Origin: Lentilitoribacter sp.
Lineage (GTDB): Bacteria; Pseudomonadota; Alphaproteobacteria; Rhizobiales; Rhizobiaceae
Assembly: GCA_039986595.1 (NCBI GenBank)
Contig: JBDWQJ010000004.1
Coordinates: 621,385 to 685,384, forward strand
DNA length: 64,000 nucleotides
Direction: 5' to 3'
Numbering within the stretch: position 1 is the first letter of the stretch; each line of letters opens with the position of its first letter. Positions 32,452 through 35,832 of the stretch are shown in pieces. Under the pieces are notes generated by a model. It made no database searches, was not told the DNA's origin, and saw nothing but the letters and a program-made list of their open reading frames with translations. A program made the position numbers and the translations under genes.

Positions 32452-33258
32452 TTATTTATCGATTTCAGCACCGATTGCTGCAATAGCCTTTTGGTACACC
32501 CCAGCTGCATTCCATGCCTTAATAGCCCGGAAATTAGTCTGACCAACTTGATATCCAGCGCCACGTTTCCAGCCTTTGCCTTTTAAGAAGTTTGCAGTTG
32601 ATGCAAGTGCATCAGCTTTTGAACTCAGGTTGAGACGGCGATTGCCATCACCATTGGCGCCATATTTTAAAACATTTGCTGGTAGAAACTGTGTTTGGCC
32701 AATTTCACCATGGGCTGCGCCTTTAAAGTTAGGGTCAAGCCAGCCTTTGTCGATCAGTTTTAACAGCGCGTAGAGTTGTGTTGTGAAGAATTCAGAGCGT
32801 CGGCAATCATATGATAGTGTGGCAACTGCTGATACAGTATGTTGATTACCGCTGAAGCGGCCAAATCCAGATTCCATGCCCCAAATTGCGATTAATACGC
32901 CTGAAGGAACGCCATATTTCTTTTCTAGGCGGTTAAATAGAGACGCATTTGTCTTTTTCAGCTTTTTGCCGCGAGAAATGATGGCTGGTGCACCACGTTT
33001 TTGCATGAACTGATTAAAGGATAGCTTGAAACTGCGTTGGTTCCGGTCAAGGCTAATTGTTTTCTTAGCATAAGATGCTTTTGCAAACGCACGATCCAGC
33101 GTTCTTTTTGATATTCCTTTGCCGGCTGCTTCTTTTTTAAATTCGCCAACCCATTTTGAGAAGTTACCTGACGTGTTGGAACAGCTTAACGCCAATGCTG
33201 GTGTTGAAAATGTCAAAGCTGCCAAAAGTGTAACTGCAATAGTAGATTTCTTGATCAT
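32452..33258 (-). CDS. Lytic murein transglycosylase (MltB/SLT_2 family)
   Basis: IWGMESGFG, HGEIGQTQFLP, DGDGNRR motifs; signal peptide. Confidence 0.9.
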   Translation of the reverse strand: MIKKSTIAVTLLAALTFSTPALALSCSNTSGNFSKWVGEFKKEAAGKGISKRTLDRAFAKASYAKKTISLDRNQRSFKLSFNQFMQKRGAPAIISRGKKLKKTNASLFNRLEKKYGVPSGVLIAIWGMESGFGRFSGNQHTVSAVATLSYDCRRSEFFTTQLYALLKLIDKGWLDPNFKGAAHGEIGQTQFLPANVLKYGANGDGNRRLNLSSKADALASTANFLKGKGWKRGAGYQVGQTNFRAIKAWNAAGVYQKAIAAIGAEIDK

Positions 33259-33395
33259 TGAACGCTCCCCGCGAGGTCTAAACCTTATCGAATCATTTTG
33301 GAATGAGCATAACTTAACCTAGAAAATAAAAAAACGACACTTCCATCTGATTGATTAAAAGCGCCGTTTTAATATGAATTGAGAATGATCGGTAT

Positions 33396-34421
33396 TTATG
33401 ATTTTGCTTTAATCAAACCACGATTTACCAATAGCTCAGCGATTTGAACCGTATTTAATGCAGCGCCTTTGCGTAAGTTGTCGGATACAACCCAAATGTT
33501 TAAGCCATTTTCAACAGTTGCATCTTCGCGGATACGAGAGATGTAGGTCGCATCTTCACCCGCGCATTCATATGGGGTGACATAGCCACCATCTTCGTGT
33601 TTATCGACAACTAGACAACCTGGCGCTTCGCGCAGAATATCGCGCGCTTCATCGGCTGTAATTTCGTTTTCAAACTCGATGTTGATTGATTCAGCATGCC
33701 CAATGAACACAGGGACACGAACCGCTGTGCAAGTCACTTTGATTTTTGGATCTAGCATTTTCTTAGTTTCTGCCAGAACTTTCCATTCTTCTTTGGTGTA
33801 TCCATCTTCCATAAAGACATCGATATGTGGAATGGCGTTGAATGCGATGCGTTTTGTAAACACGTTGTTTTCAATCGGATCTGCAACGAATACCGCGCGA
33901 CTTTGGTTAAACAACTCATCCATACCGTCTTTACCGGCGCCTGATACAGACTGGTAAGTCGAAACAACAATACGTTTGATGTTTGCTTTATCGTGAAGCG
34001 GTTTTAGTGCGACAACCAATTGAGCTGTTGAGCAGTTTGGGTTGGCAATGATGTTCTTTTTGGTAAATCCATCAATCGCTTCAGGGTTTACTTCAGGAAC
34101 GATCAAAGGAACTTCAGCGTCATAACGCCAGGCGGATGAATTATCGATAACGACACAACCTTGCGCGCCGATTTTTGGTGACATCTTTTTAGATACCGAA
34201 CCACCAGCTGACATGAGGCAAATGTCAGTTGTAGAAAAGTCGTGGGCTTCAAGATTTTTAACAACAAGCGTCTTATCTCCATAAGATACTTCTCTGCCAA
34301 CAGACCGCGAAGACGCGAGTGGAATGATTTCAGATGCGGGAAAGCCACGCTCTTCGAGAATATTGAGCATTTCGCGCCCAACATTGCCAGTAGCACCGGC
34401 GATTGCAATTTTAAAACTCAT
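33396..34421 (-). CDS. asd: Aspartate-semialdehyde dehydrogenase
   Basis: GATGNVG, DNSSAWR, NPNCSTAQL, TYQSVSGAG, DNLRKGAA; start ATG 34421. Confidence 0.97.
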   Translation of the reverse strand: MSFKIAIAGATGNVGREMLNILEERGFPASEIIPLASSRSVGREVSYGDKTLVVKNLEAHDFSTTDICLMSAGGSVSKKMSPKIGAQGCVVIDNSSAWRYDAEVPLIVPEVNPEAIDGFTKKNIIANPNCSTAQLVVALKPLHDKANIKRIVVSTYQSVSGAGKDGMDELFNQSRAVFVADPIENNVFTKRIAFNAIPHIDVFMEDGYTKEEWKVLAETKKMLDPKIKVTCTAVRVPVFIGHAESINIEFENEITADEARDILREAPGCLVVDKHEDGGYVTPYECAGEDATYISRIREDATVENGLNIWVVSDNLRKGAALNTVQIAELLVNRGLIKAKS

Positions 34422-34430
34422 TTTGAATGT

Positions 34431-34509
34431 CCTGTCTCTCTCCGCATTCTTGACCACTTACAACGTGGCCTCATCCCCGACTACCGGGGAGAGTGCGGCA
34501 GACGAGAGG
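34431..34509 (-). promoter_or_regulatory. Structured asd leader (three-way junction covering the RBS), candidate attenuator
   Basis: Stems TCCCCG/CGGGGA (34474-79/34485-90), CCAC/GTGG (34454-57/34465-68), CCGCA/TGCGG (34442-46/34494-98), plus an outer CCT-CTC-TCT pairing with AGAGAG..AGG that includes the SD-like AGG(A). Confidence 0.65.
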
Positions 34510-34511
34510 TG

Positions 34512-34604
34512 TTACGTTGTTTTTGTCGTCTTGATTGCCGTTTTGGCGATGGAATTTGAAAAAGAGAATTGCGCTGCAGACAAGCTGATGCTTGCTACAT
34601 TCAT
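34512..34604 (-). CDS. Putative asd leader peptide, 30 aa (MNVASISLSAAQFSFSNSIAKTAIKTTKTT)
   Basis: Hand translation ATG 34604 to TAA 34512; all 5 Thr and 3 Lys codons fall in the last 10 codons; too short for the ORF track. Confidence 0.7.
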   Translation of the reverse strand: MNVASISLSAAQFSFSNSIAKTAIKTTKTT

Positions 34605-34657
34605 CAAATTTAAATTTTGCAATTCAATTGAAGTCATTACAATTCTTTTTCTTACCT

Positions 34658-34680
34658 ATCGGGGCGGTTAATGCCCCGAT
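34658..34680. terminator. Hairpin downstream of leuB
   Basis: ATCGGGGC-N7-GCCCCGAT; the T tail is on the + strand, so termination of minus-strand leuB is uncertain. Confidence 0.5.
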
Positions 34681-34722
34681 TTTTAATAAGAGTCAATCTA
34701 GCTTAATGCGTTAAATGAAGGA

Positions 34723-35832
34723 TTAACCCAATAGAGATGCATATTCAGCCAAGATTGCATCACCCATCTCACTTGTTGAGATCTGTGTAGCGCCTTCTGA
34801 CATAATATCGCCAGTACGTTTGCCAGTGTCCAATACGTTGGCAATAGCTTTTTCAACCATGTTTGCTTCATCAACCATGTTAAACGAATAACGAAGACAC
34901 ATTGCAAATGAAGAGATCATGGCAATTGGGTTTGCAATGCCCTGGCCTGCAATATCAGGTGCTGAACCATGAACTGGTTCATAAAGCGCTTTACGGCTTC
35001 CGGTTTTTGCATCCGGTGCGCCAAGCGATGCTGATGGCAACATGCCAAGTGAACCTGTGAGCATTGCAGCAATATCAGAGAGCATATCACCAAACAGGTT
35101 GTCACAGACTATTACATCAAACTGTTTTGGCCAGCGAACAAGCTGCATACCGCCAGCATCAGCTAACATGTGGCTTAATTCAACATCTGAATAATTTGCG
35201 CCATGAGTGGCTGTTACAACTTCATTCCATAGAACGCCGGATTTCATCACATTGCGTTTTTCCATGGAGCAAACTTTGTTTTGGCGGGTGCGTGCCATTT
35301 CAAATGCAACACCTGAAATACGCTCAATTTCATATGTGTCATAAACTTGCGTATCAATACCGCGTTTTTGGCCATTACCAAGATCGATGATCTCTTTTGG
35401 CTCACCGAAATAAACACCACCGGTTAATTCGCGAACGATCAGAATATCAAGACCTTCAACAACTTCTGGCTTTAGTGAAGATGAATTTGCCAGCGCTGGG
35501 TAACAGATCGCCGGGCGAAGATTGGCAAAAAGCTCCATATCTTTACGCAAACGTAACAATCCAGCTTCTGGACGTGCTTCATATGGAACATCATCCCATT
35601 TAGGTCCGCCAACAGCACCAAATAGCACAGCATCAGCTGCCATGGCTTTATCCATGTCAGCATCCGAAATAGATTCTCCATGAGCATCATAAGCTGAGCC
35701 GCCAACAAGCCCTTCATCTGTTTCAAAGCCCGTATTTTGTTTGTCATTCATAAATGTGATGAACTTACGAACTTCGTTCATGGCTTCAGGGCCAATGCCG
35801 TCACCTGGAAGAAGGAATAATTTACGTGTCAT
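34723..35832 (-). CDS. leuB: 3-isopropylmalate dehydrogenase
   Basis: [36 protein letters not shown] motifs. Confidence 0.97.

Follow-up and report, generated by a model that had tools for sequence, protein, structure and literature searches.

The window, by which we mean the whole stretch of 64,000 nucleotides of Lentilitoribacter sp. DNA that was analysed, carries on its minus strand a short open reading frame (ORF) between leuB and asd (Table 1). The product of aspartate-semialdehyde dehydrogenase (Asd) is the last common precursor of lysine, threonine, methionine and isoleucine and of cell-wall diaminopimelate. An earlier note on this DNA had placed here a 30-codon ORF starting from ATG 34604 (the second ATG of the open frame), encoding MNVASISLSAAQFSFSNSIAKTAIKTTKTT and closed by TAA 34514-34512. 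It had given the distance to the asd ATG as 90 nt on the minus strand, and it had counted 5 Thr, 3 Lys and 2 Ile in the last 12 codons, with no Lys or Thr before them. The sequence confirms the distance and the counts (the remaining two of the final 12 codons are Ala). It also bears out the lack of an obvious Shine-Dalgarno (SD) sequence, a good SD being absent before ATG 34604 and before the upstream ATG 34637. The start itself has to be moved. ATG 34637 is kept within Lentilitoribacter, and one relative (L008) has TTG and no ATG at the position equivalent to 34604. Because 34637 is the start conserved in the genus, it is the likely start, which gives a leader of 41 codons. Its C-terminal end reads ...SIAKTAIKTTKTT (tail AKTAIKTTKTT), and eight of its ten terminal codons are Lys or Thr.

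Table 1. Features of the leuB-asd region, with positions in the window
Feature	Position	Strand	Remarks
leuB	ends 34725-34723	minus	upstream gene; NCBIfam equivalog TIGR00169, E 4.6e-135
TTGACT, -35-like box of putative leader/asd promoter	34691..34696	minus	TTGACT(C/T)TT at equivalent place in distant relatives and S. meliloti
CATTAA, weak -10 candidate	34673-34668	minus	17 nt after the TTGACT box
GC hairpin ATCGGGGCATTAACCGCCCCGAT	34658-34680	minus	between leuB stop and leader; kept in the genus
Leader ORF, MTSIELQNLNLMNVASISLSAAQFSFSNSIAKTAIKTTKTT	34512..34637	minus	41 codons + TAA; open frame from ATG 34637; ortholog of S. meliloti SEP5
Candidate Rho loading region	34482..34550	minus	C-rich, G-poor stretch of 69 nt: last 12 codons, stop and next 30 nt
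Sensing codons AAA ACG GCA ATC AAG ACG ACA AAA ACA ACG (K T A I K T T K T T)	34515..34544	minus	conserved positions in 98 leaders
P0, '1:2' hairpin	34496..34540	minus	CGGC (34540-34537) and AGACGA (34531-34526) pair with UCGUCUGCCG (34505-34496)
P1, long-range helix closing the three-way junction	34431..34509	minus	5' strand CCUCUCGUCUGCCGCA (34509-34494) pairs with 3' strand UGCGGAGAGAGACAGG (34446-34431)
P2 hairpin UCCCCGG-UAG-UCGGGGA	34474..34490	minus	CCCCGG..CCGGGG nearly invariant in all groups
P3 hairpin GGCCAC-GUUGUAA-GUGGUC	34452..34470	minus	hairpin at equivalent place in all groups
Purine box GGAGAGAG	34436..34443	minus	in the P1 3' strand; GCGGAGAG(GG) conserved in nearly all leaders
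Probable asd Shine-Dalgarno AGGA	34430..34433	minus	8 nt before ATG; ACAGGAG at this place in relatives
asd, aspartate-semialdehyde dehydrogenase	33396..34421 (ATG 34421)	minus	gene that the leader would regulate; NF011456, E 2.7e-155; TIGR01296, E 7.9e-138

Of the 168,638 frames that run from stop to stop over 12 aa or more in the 3.7-Mb genome, only three had a tail with at least 8 Lys plus Thr among the last 12 residues (Lys at least 2, Thr at least 3). The asd leader is one of the three and the other two sit inside other coding regions. The K/T-rich tail before asd is not due to chance. No second K/T leader was found before other aspartate-family genes in the window genome or in 201 family genomes, and profile searches of Pfam and NCBIfam matched neither leader peptide.

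Upstream of the leader, the promoter consensus scan gave the TTGACT box no score, so that the leader/asd promoter is treated here as putative. The GC hairpin behind leuB overlaps the putative -10 of this promoter. It has a T-run on the plus strand with no gene converging, and it therefore scores as a wrong-strand terminator.

The expectation that relatives share a K/T-enriched short ORF (sORF) before asd was borne out. Such a tail stands upstream of asd in 25 of 30 relatives, with 6-10 Lys or Thr in the last 12 residues and the stop 80-120 nt from asd, and in 80 of 80 named Hyphomicrobiales loci; synonymous variation was seen, and the distance from leader stop to asd start is 75-165 nt across the relatives and named loci. 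Sampling of 110 Hyphomicrobiales loci gave 105 with a Lys/Thr-cluster sORF directly upstream of asd on the same strand. The named loci cover Sinorhizobium/Ensifer, Rhizobium, Agrobacterium, Neorhizobium, Brucella/Ochrobactrum, Mesorhizobium, Phyllobacterium, Chelativorans, Nitratireductor, Roseibium, Stappia, Pseudovibrio, Aurantimonas/Aureimonas and Kaistia, and the consensus of the tail is ..(S)KT(x)AKTTTKTV*, where the asterisk is the stop. Only 4 of 40 other alphaproteobacterial families (one genome per family) have a comparable tail, and the asd leader is therefore essentially a feature of Hyphomicrobiales. The exact pattern K-T-T-T-K-T-V-stop occurred in 56 of the 201 family genomes, once per genome and never twice, and the reversed-pattern control had zero occurrences in the same genomes. 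By this pattern of occurrence the asd leader is a single-copy element tied to asd.

Conservation of the leader peptide is confined to the tail, and the N-terminal parts are unrelated among the relatives and named loci. The length of the ORF ranges from 11 aa (MRMLTKTKTTI) to about 60 aa. A short variant of 11-24 codons, including the 11-aa form, was observed in seven loci (L010, L015, L069, L079, L092, L100 and L110); it stands 75-87 nt from asd with a different hairpin arrangement, and its tails are richer in Ile. In some lineages Ile and Met codons appear from the sequences to join the Lys and Thr codons.

A member of this group has been published. SEP5 of S. meliloti 2011 is a 39-aa sORF, MRPKGSSIAALNLPAHHAGPISHFSLARKTTAKTTTKTV, located between SM2011_c04408 and SM2011_c04410, in the 5' UTR of the gene adjoining SM2011_c04410 (Hadjeras et al. 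2023, Microlife, PMC10117765). Its translation was seen by Ribo-seq (TE 0.57) and by Western blot of the tagged protein, and from its 6 Thr and 3 Lys codons the authors called it 'possibly a leader peptide' (PMC10117765). In their account its conservation is limited to Sinorhizobium and the gene behind it is an 'aspartate dehydrogenase'; the paper describes no RNA structure and no regulation test (PMC10117765). We found the SEP5 DNA at 100% identity in Sinorhizobium (L154 and L158), directly upstream of asd. SEP5 resembles the window leader in its position before asd, in the promoter box TTGACTCTT, in an ORF of about 40 codons, in its tail (ARKTTAKTTTKTV against AKTAIKTTKTT in the window), and in the downstream CUCUCCCCGG..CCGGGG hairpin and GGAGAG box, both of which are also present in the window. 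The two differ in the N-terminal peptide, which is unrelated, in the SD (a clear GAGGAA in SEP5, none in the window copy), in the end (TV-TGA in SEP5, TT-TAA in the window), and in the register in which the window S1, the CU-rich segment after the stop, pairs with the purine box.

The earlier note had supposed that a Lys+Thr leader on an alphaproteobacterial asd might be new. This holds only in part, since the Thr6/Lys3 cluster and the idea of a leader peptide were already given for S. meliloti, and with SEP5 the note's idea was in print for one species (PMC10117765). Beyond SEP5, no asd leader in Alphaproteobacteria came up in the literature searches, nor did a follow-up of SEP5 or anything on SMc04410. 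As far as we found, three points are undescribed, namely the conservation across the order, the RNA domain with P0, P1, P2 and P3, and the AAA bias described below.

Ninety-eight distinct leaders were compared codon by codon. Counted back from the stop, Lys stands at position -3 in 76 of them, Thr at -2 in 89, Thr at -6 to -4 in 76-83 and Lys at -7 in 67. The residues of the tail are the same across groups and the synonymous codons differ. About 100 leaders maintain the leader frame together with an in-frame start and the stop. Translation in the other two frames would give R/P/K/S or N/D/Q/H, and stops interrupt these frames in 9 and 23 sequences.

The choice of Lys codon in the last 12 leader codons is opposite to that of the neighbouring gene. 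Rhizobium-type leaders (L009-L063) have AAA:AAG at 92:13 against 22:753 in the asd genes of the same loci, and Mesorhizobium/Brucella-type leaders (L018-L108) have 73:2 against 42:604. Pooled, this gives 165:15 in the leaders of these GC-rich relatives and 64:1357 in the asd genes beside them. Among the KTTTKTV-stop matches, every one of the 112 Lys codons is AAA, though the search pattern permitted AAG. Leader Thr codons are likewise shifted, towards ACG. A codon read by a minor tRNA would be expected of a starvation sensor by analogy, and the rare CUA codons of leuL are the classical parallel. The extreme AAA bias would make these leaders a clean example of rare-codon tuning of a sensor.

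The 90 nt between the leader and asd fold much better than shuffled sequences (z -4.35). After the stop, all groups share the same series of blocks, namely the CU-rich S1, a CU-rich S2 ending in CUCUCC, P2, P3, the purine box and the SD; the window copy carries all of them at 34509-34430. P2 is extended by CUC(U)/GAG in Lentilitoribacter, and one of its pairs is GC in 24 sequences and CG in 18. P3 differs in sequence by lineage and even within Lentilitoribacter (GGCCAC/GUGGUC, GCCACG/CGUGGC, ACACGA/UCGUGG), and 10 of its 11 pairs change on both sides in a 28-sequence alignment.

P0 joins the Lys/Thr codons with the stop-proximal segment, and in the window P0 alone is worth -10.2 kcal/mol. The duplex has z about -3 in Lentilitoribacter and beats shuffles in 77% of the 98 leaders. 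Its outer pairs vary between genera and yet remain complementary (GGCCA:UGGCC vs CGGCA:UGCCG), and a pair of its inner hairpin covaries (CG 28, GC 16). Comparison of cognate with non-cognate duplex energies supported P0 and not the pairing of S1 with downstream sequence, with a segmentation that was faulty for Lentilitoribacter.

In P1, which is seen in the MFE structures, the 15-16 nt that follow the stop codon are joined to the purine box and to the beginning of the SD. At its foot, the GG of the asd SD pairs with CC 34509-34508. In the 28-sequence alignment 85.8% of P1 cells are paired and three pairs change on both sides, but the CU-rich and GA-rich composition of the strands alone gives a nearly equal duplex (z -0.44). 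P0 (34540-34526 : 34505-34496) and P1 share S1, so they are mutually exclusive helices, with the support for P1 weakened by composition. The purine box is also complementary to CUCUCC at 34493-34488, and S2 has two possible partners, the 3' flank of P2 and the purine box.

RNAalifold returned no structure for the global MAFFT alignment of all 98 leaders, and on a second alignment (A1) it gave a weak, partly implausible consensus. For this reason an E-INS-i alignment with a stated structure was used instead. With P0i+P1+P2+P3, 77.5% of cells are paired in the 28-sequence alignment, compared with 30-53% when the structure is slid, and the covariation score is 0.149 against 0.107, with none of 500 shuffles as high; both figures are for a structure that was derived from these same sequences.

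Some lineages show additions to this domain. L061 and L070 carry an additional hairpin of 20-60 nt that separates the GGAGAG box from the asd SD, and in both the displaced SD region (CAAGG, AGAAG) has its complement in S1 (CCUUGG, CUUCUC). In Mesorhizobium/Brucella-type leaders (e.g. L084, L090) the palindrome GGCC is repeated: S1 contains it as UUGGCC, and it returns in the P2 3' arm and in the P3 loop. In this type S1 (CCCUUGGCC / UCUCUGGCC) is complementary to the P2 3' arm (GGCCCGGGG / GGCCGGGGA), and the groups differ here by a compensatory U-A/C-G exchange. Judged from these complementarities, the RNA could form a pseudoknot or a third alternative helix.

The earlier note had taken the leader for a ribosome-dependent attenuator of the thrL type. 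One part of this stands. Comparative evidence and the translation of SEP5 support a conserved regulatory ORF with Lys/Thr (and some Ile/Met) codons, and the element in the window is quite likely a real regulatory leader. The other part, attenuation as in thrL, does not stand. No intrinsic terminator of hairpin and U-tract was found between leader and asd in the window or in Lentilitoribacter, and a U-run is absent after the window P3. A permissive Rfam cmscan of 33900-35200 (E up to 10) gave chance matches on the other strand only, without a match to Thr_leader (RF00506), to another leader, to a riboswitch or to the L-box (RF00168). The thrL-type terminator attenuator is thus ruled out as a class by the missing intrinsic terminator in the genus, though the sensing end is alike. 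A his-like chain of helices (S1 with the P2 3' arm, P2 5' arm with P3 5' arm) was also considered as antiterminator, and it was rejected as a general model because it needs a pseudoknot and because P3 is terminator-like only in a minority of lineages.

Among the relatives, P3 has a U-rich run behind it in 8 of 28 leaders of the Mesorhizobium/Brucella type and in 1 of 34 of the Rhizobium type, and lineages may thus differ in their output. In L077, L078, L086, L093, L103 and others, about 65 nt beyond the stop of the leader, the P3 hairpin is GC-rich and runs into UUUUU(A/C), which resembles an intrinsic terminator; these belong to Brucella/Ochrobactrum, Phyllobacterium and some Mesorhizobium relatives. 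From their sequences, such lineages may use classical attenuation, which most others cannot.

The stretch that spans the end of the leader and the first part of the RNA domain (34482..34550) has 36% C and 16% G. The mean of the 98 leaders is 39% C and 20% G, a C/G ratio of about 2, and the remainder of the leader has the opposite skew (25% C, 38% G). This skew is consistent with a rut site and is no proof of one. The stretch is partly base-paired in the MFE fold, and the skew has other explanations, as the ACN/AAA codons and a requirement for complementarity to the purine box account for the C-richness equally well.

When the RNA was folded at equilibrium with a ribosome mask placed on each leader codon in turn, SD exposure showed no consistent change in any group. 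To reach the foot of P1, a ribosome has to stand on the stop or on the codon just before it, and this codon -1 is usually Val in the 98 leaders. The single RNA run labelled with the species gave no reads here, and the other runs that contain the sequence are DNA-like contigs. In S. meliloti RNA runs the leader and the 5' part of asd lie on one assembled contig with depth equal to the contig mean, which is uninformative on attenuation. In the S. meliloti annotation SEP5 is 'intergenic' and not 'on sRNA', and a terminated leader transcript is not listed there.

With a probability of about 0.55, the leader in the window is the local ortholog of a SEP5-type ORF, found throughout Hyphomicrobiales, that reports the charging of tRNA-Lys and tRNA-Thr to asd. 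It is quite likely that the leader has a sensor role, that the peptide itself is immaterial and that selection acts on the 8-9 terminal Lys/Thr codons directly before the conserved RNA domain. The leader probably raises Asd when Lys or Thr is short. Beyond the observed ORF, its conservation, its codon bias and the helices, we infer stalling, the direction of the switch and a role of Rho as follows. The Lys/Thr codons would form the 5' arm of P0 and the CU-rich S1 after the stop its 3' arm. A ribosome waiting for Lys- or Thr-tRNA would block P0 and thereby free S1, by the logic of all known leader-peptide systems, and the free S1 would join the purine box GCGGAGAGAG in the long-range P1, which encloses P2 and P3. 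A ribosome at the stop would cover S1, and an untranslated leader would form P0. When Lys and Thr are ample, the ribosome would finish and leave, the C-rich stretch of codons and S1/S2 would be naked, and Rho would terminate early. In starvation the parked ribosome and P1 would conceal this stretch, and RNA polymerase would read into asd.

For the output step we tentatively prefer Rho, because an intrinsic terminator is missing in the genus and because the Rho model gives the right direction, unlike an SD reading of P1. Against this preference, P1 touches the GG of the asd SD, and a naive reading would be that starvation closes the ribosome-binding site and does not open it. The complete picture, an order-wide and terminator-less two-amino-acid attenuator in which AAA codons, a three-way junction and a stalled ribosome would hide a C-rich Rho loading site before asd, is possible but rather doubtful as a whole. 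If true, it would be a mechanism so far documented only for non-biosynthetic uORFs (tnaC, bp2923 and the duf1127 uORF).

The same sensor could act on translation in the manner of ermC or cat, where P1 would mask the asd SD and a held ribosome would unzip the foot of the helix or redirect S1, so that 30S binds; in a variant for Rhizobium-type leaders, the CUCUCU segment before P2 would do the masking. Most lineages are without an intrinsic terminator, the well-paired P1 has a 3' strand that runs into the SD (CAGG of ACAGGAG), in the ensemble the SD region is paired to about 58%, and the lack of an annotated terminated leader RNA in S. meliloti also agrees with this output. For the 34 leaders of Rhizobium type, RNAalifold joins GCUCUCU to the AGAGAGC close to the SD, and the SD region pairs with the post-stop segment over 4.8 nt compared with 2.4 nt in shuffles. 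However, this pairing is not above shuffles in Mesorhizobium/Brucella-type leaders and in Lentilitoribacter, the ribosome masks gave no consistent rise of SD exposure, and masking the K/T codons frees S1 and should favour P1, which is the wrong direction. Moreover, the ribosome would need its A site on the last sense codon or the stop to reach the P1 foot, and codon -1 is mostly Val, not Lys or Thr. We regard a translational output as unlikely.

Regulation of mRNA stability would need no switch at all and would still have the right direction. RNase E scanning depends on the 5' end, and stabilisation of erm mRNA is known; a ribosome parked near the 5' end would block such scanning and prolong the life of asd mRNA on starvation, with the folded domain merely protecting or spacing. 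The leader lies near the putative 5' end given by the promoter box, and the failure of all equilibrium switch models fits as well. But the conserved, covarying P0, the complementarity of S1 and the box, and the need of the sensing codons to abut the stop would all be left unexplained, which makes this output very improbable. Hardly less improbable is a small protein with its own function, or a K/T frame that is a by-product of an A/C-rich RNA element such as a riboswitch or protein site. Tagged SEP5 was detected in the soluble fraction, the conserved P1-P2-P3 three-way junction could bind a ligand or protein, and the leader has no SD in Lentilitoribacter. Such explanations have to face a peptide that is conserved in its K/T tail alone and so variable in length, the maintained frame with its start and stop, the different residues and the stops of the alternative frames, and the absence of any Pfam, NCBIfam or Rfam family. 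Also, the chosen amino acids are exactly end products of the pathway fed by Asd.

Our preferred reading, a sensor of Lys and Thr charging with a Rho-dependent output, shares parts with known systems. Like E. coli thrL (RF00506), trpL, hisL and leuL, the asd leader is a short ORF with a run of codons for end products. As in the thrL type, the sensing codons are one arm of a 1:2 hairpin whose other arm has an alternative partner, and as in leuL a rare codon is chosen. In contrast to the thrL type, Lentilitoribacter and most lineages are without the hairpin-U-tract terminator and have a three-way junction instead of the 3:4 terminator; Lys would be sensed together with Thr, and the controlled gene is at a branch point and not in an end-pathway operon.

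Attenuation by ribosome occlusion, presumably dependent on Rho, has been described for the duf1127 uORF of S. meliloti, tnaC of E. coli and bp2923 of B. pertussis (PMC12218461). Together with Salmonella mgtL/mgtA, these uORFs lie at or overlap a C-rich, G-poor stretch, have no intrinsic terminator and set the accessibility of the stretch by the position of the ribosome, and the duf1127 case is from the same bacterial family. They differ in that they sense tryptophan, Mg2+/proline, copper or translation stress and not Lys/Thr charging, and in that at the asd leader the role of Rho is suggested by composition and the missing terminator only. The lysine riboswitch (L-box, RF00168) and feedback-inhibited aspartokinase likewise put the aspartate pathway under control of lysine, but there is no L-box at the asd leader, and sensing there would use tRNA charging and the ribosome in place of ligand binding.

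To our knowledge, the control of the Asd branch point is essentially undescribed in Alphaproteobacteria, and we know of no L-box riboswitches at asd in this class. If the charging of Lys- and Thr-tRNA is indeed read out jointly, this would amount to the multivalent control that physiology predicts. Since model rhizobia, Agrobacterium and Brucella carry the element, it is directly testable in laboratory strains, and the missing terminator makes it a good case for leader-peptide action without one. For annotation, about 100 unannotated or 'hypothetical' sORFs could be named, and the RNA family could join Rfam.

Downstream of asd, a T-rich terminator-like stretch lies at 33330-33395, and it is followed by a 268-aa ORF (32452-33258, minus strand) with a signal-peptide-like N-terminus. 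The window sequence was also found at 100% in very large PacBio runs labelled as eukaryote-sized 'organism A' and in 'algae metagenome' samples, and from this the bacterium is probably an associate of an alga or other host.
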